From positions 1,797 through 65,796 of the IMG/VR virus record IMGVR_UViG_3300012953_000026: 64,000 nt of DNA. The stretch is one strand, 5' to 3'. A program made the translations under genes and the position numbers. This stretch comes from a virus (taxonomy: Duplodnaviria > Caudoviricetes). The notes under the pieces were generated by a model. That model searched no databases. It saw nothing but the letters and a program-made list of their open reading frames with translations, and was not told the origin of the DNA. Shown in pieces: positions 14,967-30,116 of the stretch; the first letter of the stretch is position 1; each line of letters opens with the position of its first letter.

Positions 14967-15331
14967 TAATCAACCTCGTAATTTTTTTCAAACTCGTCTT
15001 TGTCAACTGAGAATTCTGAGTCTTCTGAATCTGGTACTGGAATTAACTCTTCTTCTTGACCAGCAATAACATGCTGCTGAGAAGGTGAAGCTTTTACGCG
15101 GGGTGCATCTGGGGTCCTTAGGGTAATATTGACATTACCCTTGTCGTCTGCGACTTTTTTTATCGTATATTCGAAGCCAGAACTTTTATGACGTACTTTT
15201 AAATCAGGCTCTAAGACAACTCTGCCCTTTTTGTCTGTCACGGCTGTCTCCCTAAGTAGGGAAACTGTCTTGAGTCTGTCTTCGTATTCTTTTAACAAAA
15301 GAGCCTTTAAAAAAGCTTCAGGTTTATTCAT
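14966..15331 (-). CDS. hypothetical protein, possible virion-internal protein
   Basis: LKALLLKE and LLRE motifs. Probable start ATG 15331; the track starts at 15346. Confidence 0.6.
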   Translation of the reverse strand: MNKPEAFLKALLLKEYEDRLKTVSLLRETAVTDKKGRVVLEPDLKVRHKSSGFEYTIKKVADDKGNVNITLRTPDAPRVKASPSQQHVIAGQEEELIPVPDSEDSEFSVDKDEFEKNYEVD

Positions 15332-15764
15332 GTTGCACCCCATCACTAAATAAGTATTTTCGACACTTTATTCCTGCTCCCTCTAAAATGCGTAAACCGG
15401 TTTCATCGCGATAGCTATCCAAATAAACCAGTTCAGATATGTCAGCATTGACTATAGCTTTGGCACACATCCTACAGGGGCTAAGTGTTAAATACATCAC
15501 TTTTTTCTTTGGGTTATTATAGTCCATCTTCAGCAAACAGTTTATTTCTGCGTGAATAAAACCTGATTGACCCGGATCTTCGGACTCAACTTCGTTGGGG
15601 CCGCCGGCGTAGTTTCCGTTATACCCAACAGATAATACTTGAGTGTTATCGGATGTCACCACTATCGCCCCAACTTGGTAACGAGGATCGTAGGACCTTC
15701 TAGAAATCTCTCTTGCGACGTTTGCCCAAACGCTATCCCAGGACGGTCTGTGATTATTTCCCAT
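15324..15764 (-). CDS. dCMP deaminase family protein
   Basis: VGAIVV, GYNG, HAEINCL and SPCRMCAKAI zinc motif. Confidence 0.88.
   Translation of the reverse strand: MGNNHRPSWDSVWANVAREISRRSYDPRYQVGAIVVTSDNTQVLSVGYNGNYAGGPNEVESEDPGQSGFIHAEINCLLKMDYNNPKKKVMYLTLSPCRMCAKAIVNADISELVYLDSYRDETGLRILEGAGIKCRKYLFSDGVQHE
15351..15357 (-). promoter_or_regulatory. ATANTTA motif (candidate late promoter)
   Basis: ATACTTA upstream of the 15331/15346 start. Confidence 0.3.
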
Positions 15765-15765
15765 G

Positions 15766-17202
15766 TTAGTCTTTTAGCAAACCTGCGTTCTTGGACCAGG
15801 TCTCGTATAAGCGGCTTTGAGGATAGAACTTACTATCCAGCCTCTTATTGACAAAGCGCTTGATTTCACCAGTCGTGATCTTCCTCTGTCTTGTTTCTTT
15901 TGTCTGGGCCAAGACCTGTGCTGCAAGAGATGGGATCATCTGCTCTAAAGAGTCAAAATTCTTTTTAGCAAATTTCTTAGACTTGATCAGCGTCTCCTCA
16001 TGAGAGGCGCGCCAGGCCTTGACTGCTTTTGCGACCGCTCGCTGTACAGCTTCTTTACCCTTATCAATCCCTTGGAATATCCCATCCTTTAGCTCTTGAT
16101 TTCTGTTTTTAGCCTTAAGCGACTTTTGGCTAGAGGCTGAAAGCGAGGCCTCCCAGTCTGATAAGGCTTTGGATATCGCGTCCTTTGGAGACATTGACTT
16201 AGAGCCTGCTTCGGCTGCTGCAGCCTTGATACCTTGAGCAGGATCAGATTCTTCTTCAGGATTCTTGGGTAATTCGTCACCTGCTTCATCCTTGGCGGGC
16301 TCTCCCTCTTTGCCTTCGCCTTCTTTACCTTCACCTTCTTTATCTTCGGCGGGTTCAGCAGAGGCCGCAACAGGACCTCCTTCTGATTCCTTACCAGGAG
16401 GAGGAGCTTCTTCGGCGGAAGACTGAACACCTTGAATAACATCAGTAGGTACAATTGCTTTCTCGGCAGCGGAGGCACTTTTAGCGGTTTGTGATCCTAG
16501 GTTCTTTAACTCCCCGTAAGTTAATTGCATCAACTCATCGGAGAGCTTATCGACAGGAAGCTCATCTATCTTTTCTGCACCAGGGATGTCCGCAACAAAT
16601 TTTGATTTACTCATCAAAGATCCAAGCTTAGCCATAAACCCCTTTGGTTTAGCACCCTTAAAGGCTTTAGCTACACCCTTCTTGAGATCATCTGAGCTCA
16701 GGCCATGCTTATCAGGGTTTAGCTCGCCTAACTTCACATCATCTTCTACCTTACCTTCTAGGTTCTTAGAAAGAAGCTCAATTGCCTGAGACATCGTTCC
16801 TGCAGCGGTATTAGATTTATTCTGTAGATCTATTACTGCTTGAAGCGCTCTCGATACGTCCATCTTTTTTCCAAAGAAAGATTTGATTTGAGCACCCACA
16901 CCTTCTGGGTCATCGAGGTCTAACTTAGAAGCAAGTATGTCAGCTTTCTTTAGAGAGTTTTGAAGAGCCCCAAAATACTGCGCCACCGAATCTAGCTTCA
17001 TGCTGTTCGCTGCCGACACGTTCTGTGTGACAGCGGCCATCGCTGTCTTGACTGCTTTCTTTAATTTGTCTATGTCTTCCTGGTTAATGTCTTCCATCAA
17101 CATTCCGTACACAGACCGGTTGGCCATCGAATACTCTAGGAGAGTGTTATCATCAGCTAGCTTTAAGGCTAGCTCGTACATTGTCTCAGAATTCTTCTTC
17201 AT
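15766..17202 (-). CDS. hypothetical protein (478 aa), possible virion-internal protein
   Basis: TLLE/MLME motifs, EGEGK linker repeats, C-terminal LYETWSKNAGLLKD. Confidence 0.7.
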   Translation of the reverse strand: MKKNSETMYELALKLADDNTLLEYSMANRSVYGMLMEDINQEDIDKLKKAVKTAMAAVTQNVSAANSMKLDSVAQYFGALQNSLKKADILASKLDLDDPEGVGAQIKSFFGKKMDVSRALQAVIDLQNKSNTAAGTMSQAIELLSKNLEGKVEDDVKLGELNPDKHGLSSDDLKKGVAKAFKGAKPKGFMAKLGSLMSKSKFVADIPGAEKIDELPVDKLSDELMQLTYGELKNLGSQTAKSASAAEKAIVPTDVIQGVQSSAEEAPPPGKESEGGPVAASAEPAEDKEGEGKEGEGKEGEPAKDEAGDELPKNPEEESDPAQGIKAAAAEAGSKSMSPKDAISKALSDWEASLSASSQKSLKAKNRNQELKDGIFQGIDKGKEAVQRAVAKAVKAWRASHEETLIKSKKFAKKNFDSLEQMIPSLAAQVLAQTKETRQRKITTGEIKRFVNKRLDSKFYPQSRLYETWSKNAGLLKD

Positions 17203-18492: not shown

Positions 18493-19084
18493 GACCCCCC
18501 CTAGGATCAAAATGACTGTGGCACCTAGGCTGGTATAATTCGGAACCCCCAATCTCGAGCTTTCCAGGATCGTTATTACCTGCTACCTTCTGGGTAAAAT
18601 AAGCGTCCTCTCCACAGACCGAACATACTGCAGGACAGATATGAACGCCAGTAGCCCAAGGTAGCAATTCTTGCAACTCGTCGTATGGATCACCAGAAGA
18701 TGATAACTGAAGACTGGAAACAAGAACTGTTTTACCACGGTTGTATATCTTCTTCAGGGCCGCGGCCGCGCCAGGAATCATAAAAGCCTCATCGACAGCA
18801 ACAACATCTAAATCGTGACCTGAATTACATGCATTGAATCTTTGCAGGAGTTCCTTACCGGTGGATATTCTCTCGACCCGACTAAACCCTACAGCTCTAG
18901 ACGACAAACTTAGCCCGCTATGCGTGACAATGGAGTCTCTATCATAACGCTCGTCTATTTTGGGCTTGAATAGCAAGATGCTCTTGTTTTGATACTGGTA
19001 TCGATCTAAGGCGGCAATCAATCGAGTTGTCTTTCCGCCGAACATAGGACCAGTAAAAATCTCGAAACGGGGATTCCTGTTCAT
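18485..19084 (-). CDS. tdk: thymidine kinase
   Basis: GPMFGGKTT, LLFKPKIDERY, VDEAFM and lasso Zn motifs CSVCG...RCHSH. Probable start ATG 19084. Confidence 0.9.
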   Translation of the reverse strand: MNRNPRFEIFTGPMFGGKTTRLIAALDRYQYQNKSILLFKPKIDERYDRDSIVTHSGLSLSSRAVGFSRVERISTGKELLQRFNACNSGHDLDVVAVDEAFMIPGAAAALKKIYNRGKTVLVSSLQLSSSGDPYDELQELLPWATGVHICPAVCSVCGEDAYFTQKVAGNNDPGKLEIGGSELYQPRCHSHFDPRGGHE

Positions 19085-20088
19085 TATGAGTTTTCTTTCA
19101 ATCCCCACCACTCAATTGTCTTATTTAACCCGGAAATAAAATCCCACTCAGGCTGGAAACCTAGATCTTCTGCAATCTTCGTCATGTCAGCTTTCGTATG
19201 CTTCACATCTCCGGGTCGAGCAGGTGCATTCACGATCTCTAAATCACCGAACCTCGCCTTTAACATATTCAGTATTTCATTATTGCTAAAGGTTTCTCCA
19301 GTCCCTACGTTATAGGCATCACCTGACATCACACCCGGGGCTTGGGCAGCTGCGATATTCGCACCGACCACATCATCGATGTAAACAATATCTCTAGTCT
19401 GCTCACCATCCCCATCACTTCTCAGCGATTGGTCTGTGGCAATCTTGTCAAGCCACGCGGAGACTGCGGTAGAGTACGGGCTGTCACCCGGCTGGCCAGG
19501 TCCGAAAACGTTAAAGTAGCGCAAGCAGACTGACTGTAAATCATACAGCTTAAAAAACAACCGGCAGAAATTTTCAACGACAAGCTTCTGTAAGGCGTAC
19601 GGAGAGGCTGGCTCTAAAGACCCGGACTCTTTTGAAGGAAAATTGTCAGGCACGTCTCCATAAACTGAAGAGGAGGAACTAAACACTAACCTATCTATGT
19701 TCGAGACGCATGCTGTCATCAAAGAGACAGTCTTCATTACATTCTGGTCTGTTGTCAAAACTGGGTTTTCAACAGAAAACTGCACTCTGGGTAATGCTGC
19801 AAGGTGAAAGACATAGTCATATTTTTTATCTGCAATTCTTGACAGTACGTAGGGACTGGCAAAATCGCCAGTAATGACCAGCGCCTTGTCTTCCACAATT
19901 CCTGACTCTTCATATTGCAAAAGAAGCTCAGGAGTAACAGTCCTGATGTCTATTGCATCTAAAGCAGCGATATCTCCGCTCGAAAGATCATCGACAACCT
20001 CAACATCCCAACCTTTTTTGATCAAGGCAACTGCAAGATTTGAGCCAATAAATCCGCAGCCACCAGTAACTAAAGCTCTCTTTTTCAT
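19084..20088 (-). CDS. NAD-dependent NDP-sugar epimerase/dehydratase (GalE/WbpP-like extended SDR)
   Basis: TGGCGFIGS, HLAA, FSSSSSVYG, SPYALQK (YxxxK), LRYFNVFGP and RDIVYIDDV. Confidence 0.9.
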   Translation of the reverse strand: MKKRALVTGGCGFIGSNLAVALIKKGWDVEVVDDLSSGDIAALDAIDIRTVTPELLLQYEESGIVEDKALVITGDFASPYVLSRIADKKYDYVFHLAALPRVQFSVENPVLTTDQNVMKTVSLMTACVSNIDRLVFSSSSSVYGDVPDNFPSKESGSLEPASPYALQKLVVENFCRLFFKLYDLQSVCLRYFNVFGPGQPGDSPYSTAVSAWLDKIATDQSLRSDGDGEQTRDIVYIDDVVGANIAAAQAPGVMSGDAYNVGTGETFSNNEILNMLKARFGDLEIVNAPARPGDVKHTKADMTKIAEDLGFQPEWDFISGLNKTIEWWGLKENS

Positions 20089-20089
20089 T

Positions 20090-20611
20090 TTAATCAACTC
20101 CTAAAAAACACTTAATTTCTGAAACTTGCTTTTCTAAATTCATATCAGAAGTTTCCAGAAACAAAACATCACAATTTGTTTTGCCCAAAAACATTCTATA
20201 CCGTTCTTCAATTTTTTTTAAAGTTTTATCGTTTATTTCGTCTGGAAACAAGTCATCCTGTACGCCCTCGTAGCTCTTCTTGTAGCAGAATATTAACTTT
20301 CCATCAATAGAAGAAAACTTTTCATCGAGTCTTGATATCAGGTCTTCATTGGTTTCACGACCAAATATTGCAGAATATGCATACTCACAAGGGTAGAACC
20401 TATCAAGAATTGCAGTTGGCCTCACTTGCACCAAAAAATCCATGAGAAAAGTGCCACCAAATTTGAGCAGGTTTAAATAGTAATCATCACCGCTCAAATC
20501 TGCTTTCCACTCCCCAGTATTTTTAAAAACAGGTATACCTAGGTCTTTCGATAGCTGACCAGCTATATTAGACTTTCCTGTCATGTCAGGACCGATGAAA
20601 GCTAAAATCAT
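20090..20611 (-). CDS. deoxynucleoside monophosphate kinase (thymidylate-kinase-like)
   Basis: P-loop GPDMTGKS and LDRF motif. Confidence 0.75.
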   Translation of the reverse strand: MILAFIGPDMTGKSNIAGQLSKDLGIPVFKNTGEWKADLSGDDYYLNLLKFGGTFLMDFLVQVRPTAILDRFYPCEYAYSAIFGRETNEDLISRLDEKFSSIDGKLIFCYKKSYEGVQDDLFPDEINDKTLKKIEERYRMFLGKTNCDVLFLETSDMNLEKQVSEIKCFLGVD

Positions 20612-20615
20612 TACC

Positions 20616-21659
20616 CTACCCGCAAAGATGTTCCAGAAGGTCTACCCGAGACTCTGGACGGGGATCAATTACTGTCCGCAAAGCCTCTTCTTGCAGATTC
20701 ACCAAACCCAAGCGGTCTTCAGCTGATAGTGTGGATAACCACTTCGTCTTATTAACAACATCCTCTGTGGACCTCACGATTAGGGACTCGTCTTTTAAGC
20801 CAACAGGACGAGCGTGCTCATATTCCCATGGAATCAGTGCAGGTACCCCGCTCTTTATCGCTTCGAAAAAGCGGCCCGTAATGTTCCCGAAAGGAGTATA
20901 GTCATCCTTTGTGATATGAGTTACAGTAATAGAGGAATTCAAGACAGAAAAGATATCCTTGTACGCCAAGCGTGGGCCGAATGCGACGTTTGGCGCGTTA
21001 ATGATCCTAACAGCTGGATCTTCTCTTTCCGGAGACCTAGCTAGCCAATTACCACAAACGTACGTTTGGATCCCTTGCTCCCTGAGGGGCGTGCTCGGAT
21101 CTACGTAGTATTTCTTAAACTGGTTTTCTCTCTCGTAATTGTTTCCGACGTACGTGTAATTGTAAGAATACTCGACTGGAGAGAAGTAGCGATGCATGTA
21201 GTTGCACCAGGGGATTGAAATTCTTTTTCTAGTCAACATTCGAGGATTCACACACGCATCGGAAATTACTGCGTTAGGCCAGCGTTGCTCTTCTTCAGCG
21301 GTCATTTTAAGATCACCGTCATGAATGATGATGGGTACTCCGGCTGCGTGATAGTGATCTAAAACTTCACATTGTCTTGTATAGTCTGACTCTTGAGAAT
21401 TGCTGCCAGAATTTTTCCACGTTGGCCAGCGCCACTCACAATACACGATATCACCTTCTGGAAAACCAACTGGGTGATACTCAACGCCCGGGAACTGCTC
21501 TTCATCTCGCATCTTCTGCAATTGAATCACAGTGTGGTCTCTTCCTTGAAGTTCTCTTACAAAGTCAACTCGATTTCCTCGCTCGCCATCAGGTGTATTC
21601 ACCATAGAATTTTTCTCTAAAGGAGTAATGAAACCCCAGAAACTGTAAAGTACCCTCAT
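20616..21659 (-). CDS. GT-B glycosyltransferase, T4 DNA beta-glucosyltransferase-like
   Basis: C-terminal domain YTYVGNNYERE...ITKDDY..GNITGRFFEAIKSGVPALI parallels T4 BGT (VIYGGSFRSGQRE...IGDKNYNDNFITLRVWETMAS) from my recollection; same size (about 350 aa). The track start is 21671. Confidence 0.7.
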   Translation of the reverse strand: MRVLYSFWGFITPLEKNSMVNTPDGERGNRVDFVRELQGRDHTVIQLQKMRDEEQFPGVEYHPVGFPEGDIVYCEWRWPTWKNSGSNSQESDYTRQCEVLDHYHAAGVPIIIHDGDLKMTAEEEQRWPNAVISDACVNPRMLTRKRISIPWCNYMHRYFSPVEYSYNYTYVGNNYERENQFKKYYVDPSTPLREQGIQTYVCGNWLARSPEREDPAVRIINAPNVAFGPRLAYKDIFSVLNSSITVTHITKDDYTPFGNITGRFFEAIKSGVPALIPWEYEHARPVGLKDESLIVRSTEDVVNKTKWLSTLSAEDRLGLVNLQEEALRTVIDPRPESRVDLLEHLCG

Positions 21660-21660
21660 A

Positions 21661-22770
21661 TTATTCTCCATCCTTTTTTAATTCTTTCTTTACCTTATAC
21701 AAGGCCGAACCTATTACTTGGTGCATATCATAATATCGATATTCTGCCAATCTACCTCCAAATATTATATCACTATTTTTCGCAAGAACAGAATACTTCT
21801 TGAACATGTCGCTGTTTTTCTTATCGTTGACTGGGTAATATGGGACCTTACTCGGCGTCCAGTCTTGCGGATATTCTTTCGTTATAACTGTCTTTTTGAT
21901 GCTAGGTGCATCCTGCGGTTGGAAATGCTTGTGTTCTACAATCCTTGTATACGGGACTTCGTAATCCGTATAGTTTACAACAGCGTTACCCTGGTAATCC
22001 CCATCGTAGACTTCGTGTTCGAACCGTAGAGATCTATATTCAAGATACCCATGCTCGTAGCCAAAAAACTCGTCAATCTTACCAGTGAAAACAGTCTTAT
22101 CAGCCAGAGAGTCCCACTTCTCTCTATCTTCTAAATAATCGATACCCAGTTGGACCTCTGCTCCTTCTAGCATTTTAGAGATCATTCCGGTGTAACCATC
22201 GACTGGAATCCCTTGGTATTTATCAAAGAAGTAATTCTCTTCAAAGATCATTCTAATCGGTAAGCGTTTTATGATTGAGGCTGGTAGCTCACTTGGGTGA
22301 CGCTTCCACTGCTTCATAGTGTACCCCTTGATGAACGTCTCGTAGACCTCTCGACCCACTTGTGACAAAATCCACTCTTCTAAATTTTGCGGATTCTCAC
22401 AAGGAATTCTGACCTCTTGAAGCTTTGCCTCAGCTTCGGCCGGGGTTGTCACTCCCCACAGCTGGTGAAGAGTCATTAGATTAATAGGGAAAGAATATAT
22501 ATTACCGCGAAAATTCACCTTAGGCTTATTGATATATTGATTGAACTCGGTGAACCGGTTTACAAAATCCCAAATCTTTTCATTGTTTGTGTGAAATATA
22601 TGCGGACCATAAACATGGACGTCGACACCGTCTCGCTTTTCGGTATAGCAGTTTCCACCGATGTGGTCTCGCTTATCTAAAACAAGAACAGACTTACCGC
22701 TGTCCATCATCTCCCTTGCGAAAGTAGCACCGAACATACCGGCACCCACTATCAAATAATCATACTTCAT
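21661..22770 (-). CDS. glf: UDP-galactopyranose mutase
   Basis: IVGAGMFGA (FAD), HIGGNCY, HVYGPHIFHT, KGYTMKQW, YTRIVEHKHF, YYPVN and GRLAEYRYYDMHQVI. Confidence 0.95.
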   Translation of the reverse strand: MKYDYLIVGAGMFGATFAREMMDSGKSVLVLDKRDHIGGNCYTEKRDGVDVHVYGPHIFHTNNEKIWDFVNRFTEFNQYINKPKVNFRGNIYSFPINLMTLHQLWGVTTPAEAEAKLQEVRIPCENPQNLEEWILSQVGREVYETFIKGYTMKQWKRHPSELPASIIKRLPIRMIFEENYFFDKYQGIPVDGYTGMISKMLEGAEVQLGIDYLEDREKWDSLADKTVFTGKIDEFFGYEHGYLEYRSLRFEHEVYDGDYQGNAVVNYTDYEVPYTRIVEHKHFQPQDAPSIKKTVITKEYPQDWTPSKVPYYPVNDKKNSDMFKKYSVLAKNSDIIFGGRLAEYRYYDMHQVIGSALYKVKKELKKDGE

Positions 22771-23785
22771 TTCTTCTCCTTAAATCAACTTCATAACCAG
22801 AATAGTCAAAATCTATATTTTCTAAAACCCGCTTGCCAAAACCTAGCTTCTTCGCCCTGTGGTAAGCCAGCAGGCTGGCAAAATCTGTCCAAACGTTTTT
22901 ATCGCCATTTGAATACAGCTCTTGCAATAACGTTACTAATTCACTCTCTGTGCTGGATGACCTGACGTCTTTCTCAAATGTCAAGATCTTCTGTAACCAT
23001 CTCTCTTTCCCACCGTTTAGAAAGTCATCAGGTGCAAAGTTAGGCATCTCCCCGTTATGAACTGAACCCATGGCTGACTCATGCTCTCCACGGTCTGTTA
23101 GGATCACCCTGCACATCTTAAAGTGTCTCTCATAAATGTGCAGAGAATTACTACAGTGTGTATAGGTCCCTAACTCGACCCCAAGCTCTAGAGCAAGCAT
23201 CTCTTGAAAAAAAGTAAAAGCTGGAATATCGTAAGCAATTCCAAAAATAAGATCAGAACTTCTCATATTAACGATCATGTGAAGTTGAGCATCTCTTATA
23301 AAGAACTGAAGACTTAGTGTACAGGGCACATCTAGCTTTGCATCGACACTATCATCAGGAGTTCTTAAATGAATGATCGCTCTTCTTGAATCTGGATCCC
23401 TTGTTAACTCATCTTTTACAAAATCCCACTGATTCAACCTTCCACCGGCGATGATAGGATTTGTATGAAATATCCTAGCCCCATAAGCGGAATTAGCAGT
23501 CTTACCGTCATCACTGATATTTGACCAGAACTTTGAATAATTTGATATCCATTCTGTAGAATTGTTACCAGACAAATACCAGACCATCTCAGCCGCAAGG
23601 TACGTCGGGCTAAAGTTTCTACCCCACACAAAAGGGTACCTGTGTCGAGGGTTGTCTATTGTAAAAGACACTCCTAGTTTTTCTCTTATCTTCTGACCTC
23701 GAGGAGAGGACTCGTACTCATAATCGTTGTAGACCTCCCTAATTAGTGCGAGGTAACAGTCGGTGAAGTTCTTAAATTTTCTCAT
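22760..23785 (-). CDS. thymidylate-synthase-fold enzyme, probably dCMP-specific (dCMP hydroxymethylase-like)
   Basis: SRRAII, catalytic VPCT, MRSSDLIFGIAYD and SLHIYERH. Asp occupies the position of ThyA Asn177. Confidence 0.8.
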   Translation of the reverse strand: MRKFKNFTDCYLALIREVYNDYEYESSPRGQKIREKLGVSFTIDNPRHRYPFVWGRNFSPTYLAAEMVWYLSGNNSTEWISNYSKFWSNISDDGKTANSAYGARIFHTNPIIAGGRLNQWDFVKDELTRDPDSRRAIIHLRTPDDSVDAKLDVPCTLSLQFFIRDAQLHMIVNMRSSDLIFGIAYDIPAFTFFQEMLALELGVELGTYTHCSNSLHIYERHFKMCRVILTDRGEHESAMGSVHNGEMPNFAPDDFLNGGKERWLQKILTFEKDVRSSSTESELVTLLQELYSNGDKNVWTDFASLLAYHRAKKLGFGKRVLENIDFDYSGYEVDLRRRNEV

Positions 23786-23790
23786 ATTTT

Positions 23791-23819
23791 ATTATACTCT
23801 AAGGACCTTAATTTTTCTC
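23791..23819 (-). promoter_or_regulatory. candidate promoter GAGAAA-N17-TATAAT, leaderless (ATG 5 nt after -10)
   Basis: Read directly from the sequence. Confidence 0.4.
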
Positions 23820-26800
23820 ATAGATGTTTGAAATCCGAAATCATTTTTATTTAGCTCTCCTACGCACAAACTGTATTTTGCCATTTCTGTCTTGCCATCC
23901 CAGCTCCAGCAGAAGATCCTAAACTGCTGTCCAGAAGTACCAGCAACTGTCAGCAACAAGTAGGGTTTGTTGTTCTTGGTTACCTTTTCTTTGACGTCCA
24001 TTACAAGAAACCAATGCAAATCAACCCCGTTATAGTCATCAATGACGCTGATCTCTTTCTCATCAAGACGCTGAATTACTTCTGGAGATATAAGAGTTGA
24101 CACGTTAAATGACCCAAGGTGAGCGACGCTGTTTTGGACCTGTTCGTGTCTAGACCACTCTCCTTCCCCTTGGGTCTCTAAAGTCAACCTCTTAAAAGCG
24201 TCTTGGCCACGGGTCGGGTCTTTCTTTGTCCACTTCTTGATCTCAGTGTTGTTGTTAATGATAACCTCACTCATTTGCTTATAGCTATCAAAAGTCGAAT
24301 CAGGCCCAATACAGTTAACAGATCCAAAGGCCTTGATAGCTATCAGGGCTTGCATGGCTCTCTTATTAAACTTCGAATGTTTCCACTTACCGTCCTCATT
24401 CCACAACAAGTCCTCAACGTTATTATACGGTCTATTACCTAGTATCTCTTCAATAGCAGCTTCACCAACGCCCTTACAGGAGAGAAAAGACGGCATGAAT
24501 TTCTTACCATCTAAAATGGTCCACGACTTTGTTGCATAATTGATGTCAATAGGAACGATCTTATAACCTAGCGCTTTCACTTCGGAAAATGCCTTGGCAC
24601 GTTTTTTATCATTACCAGACATTGATTCAAGATAGGCGCACAGCCATTCTTCTTCGAAGTAAGTTAAAAGCCACGCACAGTAATAAGAATCAATCGCGTA
24701 ACAAACAGCATGAGACTTATTGAAACCGTAACCTGCAAAGAATAATATCTTCTCATAAAGATCATCAGCCAGCTGTTCATCAACTCCGTTCTTTACAGAG
24801 CCAGCGACAAATTGTTCCTTGATTGCACGAGCCTTAGCAAGGGACTCTGCAGCTTCTGACGCCTTACGCTTCATAATATTACGGCGTACTGTGTCTGTTT
24901 CCTCCTCCGGGAAACCAGCCACCACAGAACACAGCTTCATAATCTGTTCCTGAAACACGATCAAGCCGTATGTCTCTTCTAAAACCTCTCTGATAAGAGG
25001 GTGACCATAATCAATGTCATCAGGATTGTTCTTGGCATTTATATACAGCTTGTCAACCTTCGCAGTCAAAGGACCCGGGCGATATATCGAAGTTAGAGTG
25101 GCAATATCGACAATGCTCTTCGGCTTAGCTTTCTTAAATAGGTTTTGTGCACCGCGGCCAGCCAGTTGAAATATGCCGGCCCAGCGGCCCTTTGCATAGA
25201 CGTGTTCATAAACGTGTTGATCATCCATATCAAGAACTTTTGGATCCATATTGGAATTAAACCATTCATACACTTGTTCGAACGTTGGGTTCTCAATCCC
25301 TTCCTTACGCTGCAGAATCAGTTCGATGGTACGCTGAATTACACGAAGAGTTTCGAGGCCTAGCAGATCAAACTTAATCCAACCGAAAGTTTCAAGGTGC
25401 TTATAATTCATGCCTTCAGCCCAAGGAGTTTGGAGTTCGCCGCGGGCTTTGATAAGGGGCATTCTTTCTGCAATATTTTCTGCTACAATACAACCACCAG
25501 CATGTCGACCAAGCGCTTTGTTTTGCTTAAATAAGACCTGGATTGGATCAGCAACTTCTGGGTACTTTTCAATAAAGTCTCTAAAAGTTTTTGAGTGTGC
25601 TATTGCGTCTTCGTAAAGTAACACAAATAGATTCTTATCAGTTCCCTGCTTGAAAACAGCACGCTTTACATCATTCTCAACAGGCGCTAGCGCCTTATTC
25701 ACTTCGCTGAATGGGATCCCATAAAAACGAGATATATCTTTAACGAGAGACTTAAGCTTAAAAGTGTTGTAATTGGAAATCGGAACGATGTTTTCGTCAC
25801 CCCACTTGTCTTTCATCATGTTGATAAGCAGATCACGATCACCCACGTCGGTGTCAATATCTGGCGCACCTTCACGAGACGGGTTTAAAAAGCGACCAAA
25901 CATAAGATCATATTCGAACGGATCAACGTCGGTTAATCTGAGTACGTATGCAACAAGACTACCCGCAGCAGAGCCGCGACCTGGTCCTACAAGCATCGCT
26001 TTCTTAGCAATTTCAATGATGGCTTCCATAGTCAAAAAGTAGCGAGAAAAATTCTTGTCTTTAATAATCTTAAGCTCATGCTTTATTCGCTCAACGTACT
26101 TAGGATCCTTTTCAAGACCGCGGGCGATCAAACCTTTCTTACATGCTTCAAGCAGAGCCTTATCATCAGACATGCCTTTCGGCACAACATACGACGGAAG
26201 CTTCATACTTCTGTCAGGATGAATGTCAGAAATTGTTTGGTGAACAATATCATGTGGCCTTTCAACCGCGTCCCTGATCATTTCATTATTGTAAAAGTTC
26301 ATGCCATCAGTGGTCTCGAGATAAGTGTCCCATACCTGCTCGGCGTTCTTTGGATAGAGCTCACACTTTAGCTCATCCCTTGACTGGGGCAACTTGGAAG
26401 GATCAAAGTCACGATAGTTCAGCCACCCCAGTTTCTTGTACAGTTCACGCTCTTTCCAGTGTTCAGGTCGAGCATAATGAGAGTCTGTCGTCACGACTAG
26501 CTTATCAGTAATACCTTGCGATTCTGCAAACTGAATAATGGCTCTATTCACAAGGTGCTGCGCAGGCAATTTGTTGAATTGTATTTCTAACATCACATCA
26601 TCAATACCAACTGAATCGACTAGACCTTGATACGCGTTGCCAACACCGTTCATGACCTTGGAGTGAAAAGAGGGATCATCTAGGAGCTTATGGCTTAAGT
26701 CATCGAATTCTACCTGTTGAGCGTGGCGAAAAACCTCATAAGCTATAGGACCGCCAATACACGCGGTGGAGACCATCAGGTGGCCACCCTCAGACGCTTC

Positions 26801-27397
26801 CCGGAGCATTTTGTAGTCTATCCTAGGAAATCGGTAAAAGCCTTCTCTGTAGCCACGACTCACTAAGTGAAATAACCTCTGTAGTCCTTCACTGGTCTTA
26901 GGAAGAACGACAAGGTGATGGCGTCTCTTGATAGGATCATAAAACTTGGCCGACTTTGTTTCTTCCTCGTTCTCCACAGTCAGCCCAGCCTCTTCGACTG
27001 CGACGTCAACTACTTCATCATCGCCATCGACAACAGCTGTTAGCGGAGTCACGATGGCTTCTCGTTGTGCTTTCAGTATGGCGATAGATTCCTTGTCACC
27101 CTTCTTGGCAGCTTGACGAATTTGACGATCAAGTTCCCATACTTGTAGATCAGGGTGAACGTACATTTCGCAACCTGGAACAAATTTAAAACCAGGATTC
27201 TTCTTTCTAATTTTTTCTGCGTGAAGATACGCATGGCCGAATGAATTCATATGACCATGGTTAGTTAGGCACCAGCTATCCATTCCGTTTTCTAGAACAA
27301 AGTCTATATGTTCTTGAGGATAGCCTAGACCATCAAATGTCGAAAACCCATCATGAGAATGTAAAGAAGTAAAATTCTTGGGGGGTATAATAGCCAT
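23792..27397 (-). CDS. dnaE: DNA polymerase III alpha subunit (family C) with intact-looking PHP domain
   Basis: PHP HSH..D, GPGRGSAAGSLVAY, PDIDTD, RHAGG, KFDLLGL, RPGP, VFQEQIM and YGFNKSHA; no intein. Confidence 0.95.
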   Translation of the reverse strand: MAIIPPKNFTSLHSHDGFSTFDGLGYPQEHIDFVLENGMDSWCLTNHGHMNSFGHAYLHAEKIRKKNPGFKFVPGCEMYVHPDLQVWELDRQIRQAAKKGDKESIAILKAQREAIVTPLTAVVDGDDEVVDVAVEEAGLTVENEEETKSAKFYDPIKRRHHLVVLPKTSEGLQRLFHLVSRGYREGFYRFPRIDYKMLREASEGGHLMVSTACIGGPIAYEVFRHAQQVEFDDLSHKLLDDPSFHSKVMNGVGNAYQGLVDSVGIDDVMLEIQFNKLPAQHLVNRAIIQFAESQGITDKLVVTTDSHYARPEHWKERELYKKLGWLNYRDFDPSKLPQSRDELKCELYPKNAEQVWDTYLETTDGMNFYNNEMIRDAVERPHDIVHQTISDIHPDRSMKLPSYVVPKGMSDDKALLEACKKGLIARGLEKDPKYVERIKHELKIIKDKNFSRYFLTMEAIIEIAKKAMLVGPGRGSAAGSLVAYVLRLTDVDPFEYDLMFGRFLNPSREGAPDIDTDVGDRDLLINMMKDKWGDENIVPISNYNTFKLKSLVKDISRFYGIPFSEVNKALAPVENDVKRAVFKQGTDKNLFVLLYEDAIAHSKTFRDFIEKYPEVADPIQVLFKQNKALGRHAGGCIVAENIAERMPLIKARGELQTPWAEGMNYKHLETFGWIKFDLLGLETLRVIQRTIELILQRKEGIENPTFEQVYEWFNSNMDPKVLDMDDQHVYEHVYAKGRWAGIFQLAGRGAQNLFKKAKPKSIVDIATLTSIYRPGPLTAKVDKLYINAKNNPDDIDYGHPLIREVLEETYGLIVFQEQIMKLCSVVAGFPEEETDTVRRNIMKRKASEAAESLAKARAIKEQFVAGSVKNGVDEQLADDLYEKILFFAGYGFNKSHAVCYAIDSYYCAWLLTYFEEEWLCAYLESMSGNDKKRAKAFSEVKALGYKIVPIDINYATKSWTILDGKKFMPSFLSCKGVGEAAIEEILGNRPYNNVEDLLWNEDGKWKHSKFNKRAMQALIAIKAFGSVNCIGPDSTFDSYKQMSEVIINNNTEIKKWTKKDPTRGQDAFKRLTLETQGEGEWSRHEQVQNSVAHLGSFNVSTLISPEVIQRLDEKEISVIDDYNGVDLHWFLVMDVKEKVTKNNKPYLLLTVAGTSGQQFRIFCWSWDGKTEMAKYSLCVGELNKNDFGFQTSMRKIKVLRV

Positions 27398-27477: not shown

Positions 27478-27852
27478 TTAGGGTTTAATTTCAGACAATC
27501 TATCAGTTATTATCTTGTGTTTGCGAGTGTAGGCTTCAAAAAATTCTTCTGAATCTACACCTGTCAAAACCAGTATTGCCAAGAAATAATTAAAAGCGTC
27601 TATCATTTCCTCCAGGTATTCCTGCCTGTCGAATTCTTTCTTAGAAGCCCTGTGATCTTTCCAGTTCTTCAGGTGTAGCAGCGCCTCAAAAAGCTCTTCA
27701 ACACTTCTAAACGTTATTTCTCGCAAGACCTTTTGGGAAGCCTTATCCTCCAGGTTTACTGGCCACTCCGGATACGCTCCTCCGACTTTCTCAGAGATTG
27801 TTCGCATAAAATCTTGCCTGAGCGCAAAAAGTAAATCTAATCTATCATCCAT
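27478..27852 (-). CDS. all-alpha NTP pyrophosphohydrolase (dUTPase/dCTPase/MazG-like)
   Basis: EELFEALLHLKNWKDH...EEMIDAFNYF acidic metal motif (EExxE...ExxD). Confidence 0.75.
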   Translation of the reverse strand: MDDRLDLLFALRQDFMRTISEKVGGAYPEWPVNLEDKASQKVLREITFRSVEELFEALLHLKNWKDHRASKKEFDRQEYLEEMIDAFNYFLAILVLTGVDSEEFFEAYTRKHKIITDRLSEIKP

Positions 27853-28876: not shown

Positions 28877-29683
28877 TCACCCCTGAATTTCTGGTACCCA
28901 ATGAGTCGTTCGACCATCAGGTGTTTTTTCTTTTTTTACGGTATTACCGTCTGGATCATTTTTCTGATTATATACTAAGAAACGAGAACTGTAATTGCCA
29001 ATTTCACCATAAAAATCTCGATAAGAGTTAATGGTTGCACCGCCTGTCTGAAAGGATTCTCTCATAACAGACTTTATCGACTTGTTGAGCATTTTTAAAT
29101 TAGAGTCAGAAAGATCGCTAACTTTCTTGAACGGGCTTATTCTGGCAAGATACAGAGCTTCTGCTTTTACGTAGTTACCCACTCCAGCAACAACTGATTG
29201 ATCCATTAAAGCCTTTGTGATATTTACATCATCTTTTTTTCTTATCGAAGAAAGAAACAAGTCGTTGCTAACATCTTCAGCCAGCATATCCGGGCCGAAT
29301 GAGGCGAGCTTTGAAGAGAGCTGTTTTGGATCAAAAGAGAATTTAATTGTTCCAAAGTTGCGCATATCGTTGAAGTAGACAGTCTTACCGTTGTTAAACT
29401 TCAGCGACACCCGTGTGTGTTGAGTTGATTCTTTTTGCCAAGCCCCAGTCATGCCTAGGGTTGACCACATACTGCTCTTATCCTGGAATATGAAATATAT
29501 GAATTTACCATGAACGCCTACACCCTGAACCTGAAGCGGAAGTCTTTGCTTTAGTGTGTCTAAGCCCGGAAGCTCTTTTTTCAAATATCTCCCTGACACT
29601 ATCTCTATTTCCTGTAAAACATCTCCGCCGACGCTCTCTCCCAAGAACATTGCATATCTTCTACACTCTGGACCTTCAGGCAT
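28877..29683 (-). CDS. Fpg/Nei family DNA glycosylase/AP lyase with zincless finger
   Basis: N-terminal PEGPE, HGKF, LGMTG, FNDMRNFG, H2TH ALMDQSVVAGVGNYVKAEAL, C-terminal GRTTHWVPEIQ with no Cys. Confidence 0.9.
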   Translation of the reverse strand: MPEGPECRRYAMFLGESVGGDVLQEIEIVSGRYLKKELPGLDTLKQRLPLQVQGVGVHGKFIYFIFQDKSSMWSTLGMTGAWQKESTQHTRVSLKFNNGKTVYFNDMRNFGTIKFSFDPKQLSSKLASFGPDMLAEDVSNDLFLSSIRKKDDVNITKALMDQSVVAGVGNYVKAEALYLARISPFKKVSDLSDSNLKMLNKSIKSVMRESFQTGGATINSYRDFYGEIGNYSSRFLVYNQKNDPDGNTVKKEKTPDGRTTHWVPEIQG

Positions 29684-30116
29684 TTTGGCACCCTCCGTAG
29701 TTGTCTAGTAAAAAACTGTGGTAATCTACCAGAGCATGATCATTAGGCTCTAGTAACCGCCACTCTCCTTTTATGAAAATGTTATACGCATCGTCAGCGT
29801 ATTTTCCACACCCATAAAGCTCCTTGGCATCCGACCATTCTTCGCCGAGGTACTCTTCGCAAAACCTCTTTAAGATCTTTACTCTTCTGTTTACGAGACC
29901 TAGAGAACAAAGCTCTTCTCGTAATCTATCTTCAGGCGCAGAAATAAGAGAGATCGGATCAGGGTATTGAGAAAAAAAATCTTGTATCATCGGCTCGACT
30001 TGCTTTCTAGAAGTTTGGTTCAATAATAAGCAAGTGACAAGGATCTTCCAACCATCTGGCCAGAACCTCTCCTGGAGCAGGTCATAAGGTGATTTAGGGG
30101 GTATCCACTCATTCAT
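29676..30116 (-). CDS. MBD4-like G:T/G:U mismatch DNA glycosylase (stand-alone HhH catalytic domain)
   Basis: WIPPKSPYDLLQE...WKILVTCLLLNQTS...LGL...GCGKYADDAY.IF..GEW...PNDHAL..Y matches the MBD4 glycosylase domain pattern; the catalytic Asp position is retained. Confidence 0.85.
   Translation of the reverse strand: MNEWIPPKSPYDLLQERFWPDGWKILVTCLLLNQTSRKQVEPMIQDFFSQYPDPISLISAPEDRLREELCSLGLVNRRVKILKRFCEEYLGEEWSDAKELYGCGKYADDAYNIFIKGEWRLLEPNDHALVDYHSFLLDNYGGCQNA

Follow-up and report, generated by a model that had tools for sequence, protein, structure and literature searches.

Sugar-coated cytosines shield phage DNA from restriction enzymes and several CRISPR effectors, and are in turn targeted by type IV restriction systems and by glycosylases. 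The closest published systems to the locus described here are the T-even pathway to glucosyl-5-hydroxymethylcytosine and the galactosyl-5-hydroxycytosine system of the Rhizobium phage RL38J1. The gene in question, which encodes a glycosyltransferase (GT), is located at positions 20616..21671 on the minus strand of a 64-kb stretch of DNA (hereafter the window) within a 65.8-kb virus fragment from IMG/VR (IMGVR_UViG_3300012953_000026). An earlier reading of the window, referred to here as the original prediction, had likened the product of this gene to the beta-glucosyltransferase (BGT) of phage T4. Our analysis showed this protein to be distantly related to T4 BGT, with a BGT-type UDP-binding C-terminal domain and a strongly diverged N-terminal domain, and the protein is very likely a glycosyltransferase for 5-hydroxymethylcytosine (5hmC) in DNA.

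T4 BGT is assigned to CAZy family GT63 and Pfam family PF09198 and is represented by the PDB entries 1bgt, 1qkj, 1j39 and 1c3j. It is the closest known protein to the target, which is a remote relative that fails the curated family model. The C-terminal domains of the two proteins are homologous, and both GT genes lie just downstream of the genes for a dCMP hydroxymethylase and the replicative polymerase, the local order in T4 being gp43 polymerase, gp42 and b-gt. The N-terminal domain of the target, the part of these enzymes that binds the acceptor and provides the catalytic base, is too divergent from that of T4 BGT to be detected by profiles; the target is also acidic and is flanked by UDP-galactopyranose mutase (UGM, Glf) and an epimerase.

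In RL38J1, a member of the Pootjesviridae, gp216 is the synthase, gp215 is "galactosyltransferase 1", gp214 is a kinase and gp84 is Glf; the base-proximal sugar is galactose, and a phage supply of UDP-galactofuranose (UDP-Galf) has been proposed (Lee et al. 2026, PMC13326640). As in the window, a ThyA homologue, a GT and a kinase are neighbours and the phage encodes Glf. However, RL38J1 makes 5-hydroxycytosine by means of a ThyA homologue with a D169N substitution, whereas the phage in the window has the hydroxymethylase Asp. Furthermore, gp215 is unrelated to the target family (0.06% at the profile level), and the RL38J1 Glf is distant from the GTs. It has also been reported that T4-betaGT-like GT-B enzymes from metaviromes (e.g. 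GT53 and GT94) put sugars other than glucose, namely hexose, N-acetylhexosamine (HexNAc), heptose and Kdo, on 5hmC, and that in clusters with a C5-methyltransferase and TET, and in "subclass II" cassettes of a GT plus an epimerase, the adjacent sugar-nucleotide enzymes set the product (bioRxiv 10.1101/2023.12.21.572611). These pathways differ in that 5hmC is made post-replicatively by methyltransferase and TET, in contrast to the T4-type nucleotide-level route predicted here.

Relationship of the glycosyltransferase to T4 BGT

When the profile of the GT family was searched with hmmsearch against 177,635 distinct PDB sequences, T4 BGT was the only match (E 7.1e-5), with residues 227-331 of the query aligned to residues 234-336 of BGT, and no GT4, AGT or other GT-B entry was matched. 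With phmmer, the single GT sequence gave a chance match only against the PDB. A BGT-family profile was built from nine members (T4, Acinetobacter AB1I1T, KMB26, PS2, CC31, VPE25, ATCCB, RsoM2USA and LR756500), and its comparison with the GT family by hhalign gave a probability of 96.8% (E 2.9e-10, 153 columns), or 98% in global mode (E 1.5e-12, 310 columns). The link is clear only with this family profile; against the single sequence ATCCB_0046 the value was 1.9%. Four phage GTs encoded beside Glf or ThyA homologues, used as negative controls, all remained below 1%, and no match was found by Pfam for these four or for three hypothetical proteins of ATCCB. The resemblance to T4 BGT proposed in the original prediction is therefore above chance, and the T4 BGT strings that it had quoted were accurate, as they are present in the aligned b-gt translation. 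Its view that the nucleotide-sugar domain is similar and the N-terminal domain divergent also agrees with the analysis by domains: the C-terminal domains alone gave 97.7% (E 1.4e-12) and the N-terminal domains alone 3.4%, so the BGT signal comes from the C-terminal UDP-binding domain.

At the residue level, R181, G207/N208, Y258, R267, E270 and Q327 of the GT are equivalent to R195, G214/N215, Y261, R269, E272 and Q327 of BGT, with all the conserved UDP contacts R195, Y261, R269 and E272 having an aligned counterpart. All of these GT residues are invariant or nearly invariant in the GT family, and R191 of BGT is aligned with an invariant residue of the GT, Asn177. Both C-terminal domains also have a similarly weak match to PF13524: that of the target (residues 196-310) scored 21.8 bits, below the cut-off of 25 bits, and that of T4 BGT (residues 197-324) scored 21.3 bits. 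In the forced global alignment, the GD120LKM..QxWPN segment of the GT is placed on TD100IRL..QxWPN of BGT (Q-R-WPN versus Q-S-WPN) and E30 on E22. D118 is invariant and position 120 is acidic in all 67 aligned members, both residues being located just after beta-strand 4.

Several results weigh against a close membership of the target in the BGT family. The similarity of the N-terminal domains was not significant, and the equivalence of D120 to the catalytic base D100, which for this reason rests on the forced global alignment, is tentative. PF09198 (T4-Gluco-transf), which models only the N-terminal domain (BGT residues 1-167), matched neither the target and 66 relatives (67 members, E<=1) nor ten distant representatives; as a control, the BGTs of T4, VPE25, ATCCB, RsoM2USA and LR756500 all matched it, with E values from 1e-22 to 1e-98. 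In addition, structure alone does not tell the GT-B families apart and does not single out the DNA glycosyltransferases. According to an AlphaFold2 model made from the 67-sequence alignment (pLDDT 94.2, pTM 0.91), the GT is composed of two Rossmann-like domains in a GT-B fold and can be superposed on BGT over its full length. The comparison of such a model with BGT, which the original prediction had proposed, ended in a tie. GT4-type enzymes were the leading matches in Foldseek, in which T4 BGT ranked 11, and a wide structure search independent of Foldseek returned the same tied group of GT-B enzymes, with Z scores of 21.9-22.0 for BshA, 21.7 for SPS, 21.4 for PglA and 21.3-21.5 for AGT; BGT and AGT score about as BshA, PglA and PimA do. 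The structural similarity to GT4 enzymes is thus high but generic.

The gene and its family

The open reading frame (ORF) at 20616-21671 exists as proposed, on the minus strand, with 351 amino acids from the first ATG, and the quoted motifs, namely NYTYVGNNYERE, ITKDDYTPFGNITGRFFEAIKSGVPALI and VRSTEDVVNKTKWL...LVNLQEEAL, are present in its translation. The true start is probably not the annotated first ATG at 21671 but Met5 at 21659. A GGAG Shine-Dalgarno sequence is located 6 nt before the ATG of Met5, the Glf stop codon TAA (21663-21661) is separated from this ATG by 1 nt, and most homologues begin at the Met5 position, for instance P0002 (347 amino acids, 95% identical). It is therefore probable that the GT has 347 amino acids and is translationally coupled to glf, directly downstream of which the gene had been placed. 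Scans for promoters and terminators gave nothing better than shuffled sequence.

Judged from its sequence relatives, the gene is real and conserved. A word-indexed search found 138 or more homologues, every one of which was "hypothetical" or unnamed, and when the profile was searched exhaustively, the family came to 446 representative clusters at E<=1e-3, of which 121 passed E<=1e-30. The tblastn search of the GT protein against 50,697 phage records gave no match at E<=1e-3, megablast of the 6-kb region gave none, and neither PHROGs nor NCBIfam has a family for the target. The source fragment was estimated to be 21% complete, so with its 65.8 kb the virus would be a jumbo phage of roughly 300 kb.

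The predicted acceptor and the modification module

Nearly all genes of the window are carried on the minus strand. In the direction of transcription, the genes for a MazG-like pyrophosphatase, a PolIII-alpha polymerase, a dCMP hydroxymethylase, Glf, the GT, a P-loop kinase and a short-chain dehydrogenase/reductase (SDR) epimerase are followed by those for thymidine kinase, a cupin, a DHH phosphoesterase, a 478-aa protein and dCMP deaminase. From the hydroxymethylase to the epimerase, start and stop codons overlap or are 1-4 nt apart. Conservation of this order was assessed in 46 IMG/VR loci with relatives of the GT (38-95% identity, contigs up to 281 kb). The kinase adjoins the GT in all 46, the epimerase is present in about 43 and the hydroxymethylase in about 42, and in nearly every locus PolIII-alpha is encoded upstream of the GT.

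The gene context supports 5hmC in DNA as the predicted acceptor, and the enzyme that bears most directly on this is the ThyA-fold dCMP 5-hydroxymethylase (22760..23785, minus strand), which is of the MilA/gp42 type. Its best PDB match was MilA, a CMP 5-hydroxymethylase (E 5e-46), followed by thymidylate synthases (about 1e-20) and T4 gp42 (1.7e-17), and it fell below all thymidylate synthase equivalog cut-offs of NCBIfam. The alignment showed the catalytic Cys (PCT), Asp at position 169 of E. coli ThyA (MRSSD) and Asp at position 177 (YD), as in T4 gp42, and the relatives were alike; RL38J1 gp216 has Asn at the former site (MRSQN). The D169N signature has been used as the criterion for 5-hydroxy-dCMP synthases, and gp216 was experimentally shown to be such a synthase (PMC13326640). 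The Asp169/177 signature therefore indicates that the pathway makes 5-hydroxymethyl-dCMP and not 5-hydroxy-dCMP, and a 5-hydroxycytosine system of the RL38J1/RB69/DLP3 type was rejected because the ThyA homologue has Asp rather than Asn at position 169.

The other enzymes expected of such a pathway have candidates in the same module, all on the minus strand. The MazG-like all-alpha NTP pyrophosphohydrolase (27478..27852; Pfam PRA-PH, E 9.5e-6), syntenic in many of the related loci, is a candidate dCTPase analogous to gp56, and the small P-loop kinase (20090..20611), which has weak matches to AAA_28 (E 5e-4) and to the thymidylate kinase family of PHROGs, is a candidate kinase for 5-hydroxymethyl-dCMP (hm-dCMP) or another deoxynucleoside monophosphate; both functions are suggested by synteny. 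The PolIII-alpha-type replicative DNA polymerase (23792..27397; Pfam DNA_pol3_alpha, finger and PHP) is encoded directly upstream of the modification genes. The dCMP deaminase (15324..15764; Pfam dCMP_cyt_deam_1, E 1.9e-19), an analogue of T4 Cd, is syntenic in most of the related loci.

In the pathway that we propose, the MazG-like enzyme and the hydroxymethylase would turn the dC pool into hm-dCMP, the adjacent kinase would pass this on towards hm-dCTP, and the PolIII-type polymerase would build 5hmC into the phage DNA, after which the GT would move a sugar from a UDP-sugar to the 5-hydroxymethyl oxygen. If the mechanism resembles that of BGT, the transfer would proceed with inversion and the linkage would be beta, the general base being Asp118 or Asp120. 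The sugar would be galactose-derived, because the epimerase is a near-universal neighbour of the GT, and in the clade of the window it would most likely be galactofuranose (Galf), with UDP-Galf supplied by Glf, whose gene is translationally coupled to that of the GT. The analysis shows directly the fold, the homology of the C-terminal domain to BGT, the hydroxymethylase signature and the synteny; that the GT acts on DNA, which sugar it transfers and in which ring form, with what stereochemistry and by which catalytic base are predictions drawn from context and homology. Taken as a whole, with Galf included, this T4-style pre-replicative scheme has in our estimation a little less than an even chance of being correct.

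Alternative acceptors, linkages and donors

One might argue that the GT does not modify DNA at all and that its acceptor is a virion or host protein, a lipid or teichoic-acid type molecule, a small molecule or a free nucleotide. Enzymes that do not act on DNA (the GT4 enzymes BshA, PglA, PimA and tll1591) are found among the structural neighbours at equal Z, the acceptor-binding domain is the one that lacks significant similarity to BGT, separate sugar clusters occur in the jumbo phages of this group, and the GT is acidic overall, with an isoelectric point of 5.4 compared to 9.05 for T4 BGT. The family medians, however, are 6.2 and 6.6, so the overall isoelectric point is not diagnostic of a DNA-binding surface; 18 of the 39 Lys/Arg residues of the otherwise acidic GT are at least 90% conserved. 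What makes this explanation very improbable is that the sole significant sequence relative of solved structure is a DNA glycosyltransferase, that the GT belongs to a replication module, next to a nucleotide kinase in all 46 loci and nearly always with the dCMP hydroxymethylase on its other side, with the same gene order being found in T4, and that library scans of the module genes matched no flippase, polymerase or carrier-lipid family. A DNA glycosyltransferase for 5hmC that is retaining, as are the GT4 enzymes and T4 AGT, and thus forms an alpha linkage also seems unlikely, although somewhat less so. The GT-B retaining enzymes BshA, AGT, PimA and tll1591 tie structurally with BGT, and the mapping of the catalytic base in the N-terminal domain is not statistically supported; on the other hand, the profile signal singles out BGT, with no match to any GT4 or AGT sequence of the PDB, neither PF00534 (Glycos_transf_1) nor PF13692 was matched in the GT family by Pfam, and after beta-strand 4, the place of D100 in BGT, the GT has D118, which is invariant, and D120, which is nearly so.

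The donor is a matter on which the evidence is more divided. The original prediction had proposed a new donor specificity, and UDP-Glc is probably not the donor, because the GT is flanked by Glf and the epimerase. That Glf (21661..22770, minus strand) is a UDP-galactopyranose mutase is indicated by Pfam GLF (E 6.8e-76) and by the NCBIfam equivalog TIGR00031 (387 bits, cut-off 304), and besides its coupling to the GT, glf overlaps the upstream hydroxymethylase gene by 11 nt. The Glf-GT coupling is kept throughout the clade of the window (GT at least 72% identical), and the adjacency recurs in locus L044, whose GT is 39% identical and nested among relatives without Glf, so that there are two origins on the GT tree. 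In line with these results, the GT may be the first galactofuranosyltransferase of GT-B fold (BGT type), and its product beta-D-galactofuranosyl-5-hydroxymethylcytosine, a base not yet described chemically, which would fully replace cytosine in widespread uncultured jumbo phages; we put this forward tentatively, as it is somewhat short of an even chance.

Against Galf, and in part against any proposal of a donor particular to the clade of the window, stand several observations. Most GT clades are without Glf, which is confined to the clade of the window and L044, and five large relatives without it (contigs 59-84% complete) showed no Glf anywhere. No residue of the GT is common to both Glf-associated lineages and excluded from the others, the fixed differences of the clade of the window being V7/I and L18/F only. 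In clades without Glf, a second SDR epimerase/dehydratase is found beside the GT instead, which speaks against a furanose-specific enzyme. The epimerase of the window (19084..20097, minus strand; Pfam Epimerase, E 9e-51), which is GalE/WbpP-like and probably an NDP-sugar 4-epimerase, is below every NCBIfam equivalog cut-off, and its closest PDB entries (6dnt at 2e-52, then 6wjb, 4zrm, WbgU and WbpP at about 1e-40) place it nearer to the UDP-GlcNAc/GalNAc 4-epimerases than to E. coli GalE (1e-24). For these reasons an N-acetylhexosamine is a possible sugar as well. To our knowledge, the characterised galactofuranosyltransferases are of GT-A or DUF4422 type and not GT-B, and no description of galactofuranosyl-5hmC was found in the literature.

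Several of these observations, and the near-universal presence of the epimerase beside the GT, favour a reading in which the GT is a BGT-related enzyme for 5hmC in DNA with a family-wide pyranose donor (UDP-Gal, UDP-GalNAc or even UDP-Glc). Glf would then supply UDP-Galf to another transferase, which might for instance attach the second sugar of a DNA glycan, or to a different process of the phage. Additional transferases exist in related genomes (a GT4 pair with weak "GT4-conflict" matches, and GT11), the Glf of RL38J1 is encoded far from its GTs, and for VPE25 the authors of the study speculated that the BGT-glycosylated DNA receives another sugar from the product of a separate ORF, which is WbbI-like and resembles Galf-transferases (PMC4999554). 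However, tblastn with this WbbI-like ORF found nothing in the window or in the related loci compared, and no other GT was recognised in the 64-kb window by library scans that included Pfam and PHROGs. The distal GT4-type pair is present with and without Glf and does not track with it, the Lactobacillus phage ATCCB has a BGT-type GT as its only annotated GT, next to Glf, and glf is coupled to the GT in two independent lineages. We regard the pyranose explanation as a serious contender, slightly less probable than Galf. Either every member of the GT family may transfer Galf, Glf being provided by the host if the phage does not encode it, or a pyranose may be used throughout, with Glf acting in a different step; donors that differ from clade to clade are disfavoured, because no GT residue tracks with Glf. 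Of the new donor specificity, the coupling of glf and its passing of the UGM equivalog model speak in favour, whereas the many clades without Glf, the lack of covariation and the HexNAc-like epimerase do not.

Variation around the module in related genomes

The sugar-nucleotide genes beside the conserved GT differ by clade. The second SDR was found at L033:9043-10032, L039:9047-10039, L028:7021-8007 and L044:5379-6371, often with a 258-aa ORF without a Pfam match (L033:10029-10805), and L044 holds the second SDR, Glf and the usual epimerase together. Genes of the IMP dehydrogenase/GMP reductase family are found inside the nucleotide module of some relatives (L044:11257-12291 and L028:13239-14300). 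On the 281-kb contig of one relative (L064, G006:C1:44000-62000), a separate sugar cluster is located about 100 kb from the GT module and encodes an SDR epimerase, a GT11 fucosyltransferase-like protein, a DegT aminotransferase, GDP-mannose 4,6-dehydratase and a PD-(D/E)XK nuclease, together with two GT4-type GTs with weak "GT4-conflict" matches, a pair similar to which is found in genomes without Glf. This cluster may serve the extension of a DNA glycan or the synthesis of a virion or host glycan.

Close upstream of the modification module, the window has two overlapping glycosylase genes, one for a DNA glycosylase of Fpg/Nei type (28877-29683) and one for a short enzyme of HhH-GPD type (29676-30116), and this pair is syntenic in several relatives. 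The 478-aa ORF (15766-17202), located between the DHH phosphoesterase and dCMP deaminase genes, had no Pfam or PHROG match, and a homologue was found in only one of the 46 loci, that of the closest relative (L002, 70% identity).

Comparison with other phages

The profile of the target family detects the BGT homologues of VPE25 (E 1e-8) and RsoM2USA (2e-7), and VPE25 b-gt, ATCCB_0046, RsoM2USA_2 and the GT of LR756500 are all encoded near hydroxymethylases of ThyA fold, as is the target. The difference is that these four proteins match PF09198 (E 1e-22 to 1e-62) and share 26-41% identity with T4 BGT, neither of which holds for the target family. VPE25 is an Enterococcus phage, and experiments have demonstrated glycosylated cytosine in its DNA (PMC4999554). 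In ATCCB, which has been cultured and has a complete genome of 80.5 kb, the genes for a ThyA homologue of dCMP-hydroxymethylase type, the PF09198 GT and Glf are consecutive (L048, MK504445.1 34336-37391); the paper on its isolation is silent on DNA modification (PMC6563214). PF09198 proteins are also encoded within a few kb of ThyA homologues in two jumbo phages, the uncultured LR756500.1 (L050, 462 kb) and the Ralstonia phage RsoM2USA (L051, 344 kb), and these ThyA homologues were among the best phage matches to the hydroxymethylase of the window.

In the Actinomycetia phage DSL-LC01 (L072, OQ999401.1 93284-96429), Glf overlaps an unrelated annotated GT, and the replication module that holds the two resembles that of the window, as it also encodes a kinase, MazG, dCMP deaminase and a ThyA homologue; like the arrangement in ATCCB, this speaks for Galf as the donor. 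In the T4-like Aeromonas phage phiAS4 (L071, 14224-17496), Glf is followed by two ORFs of about 350 amino acids without a Pfam match. No kinship of the target to the GT adjacent to Glf in DSL-LC01, to ORF26/27 of phiAS4 or to RL38J1 gp215 was found by hhalign.

Implications

The target family is a large BGT-related subfamily whose members have so far been unnamed or "hypothetical" and which is tied to galactose-type donor genes. With its 446 clusters, it carries the lineage of T4 BGT into jumbo phages and connects this lineage with galactose-type sugar-nucleotide enzymes. If the sugar is indeed a furanose, this would add a new ring form to the DNA glycans and a new fold to the galactofuranosyltransferases, and the enzyme could be a new one for the selective labelling of 5hmC. 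Even in a conservative reading, hundreds of phage "hypothetical proteins" can be annotated as BGT-related DNA glycosyltransferases.

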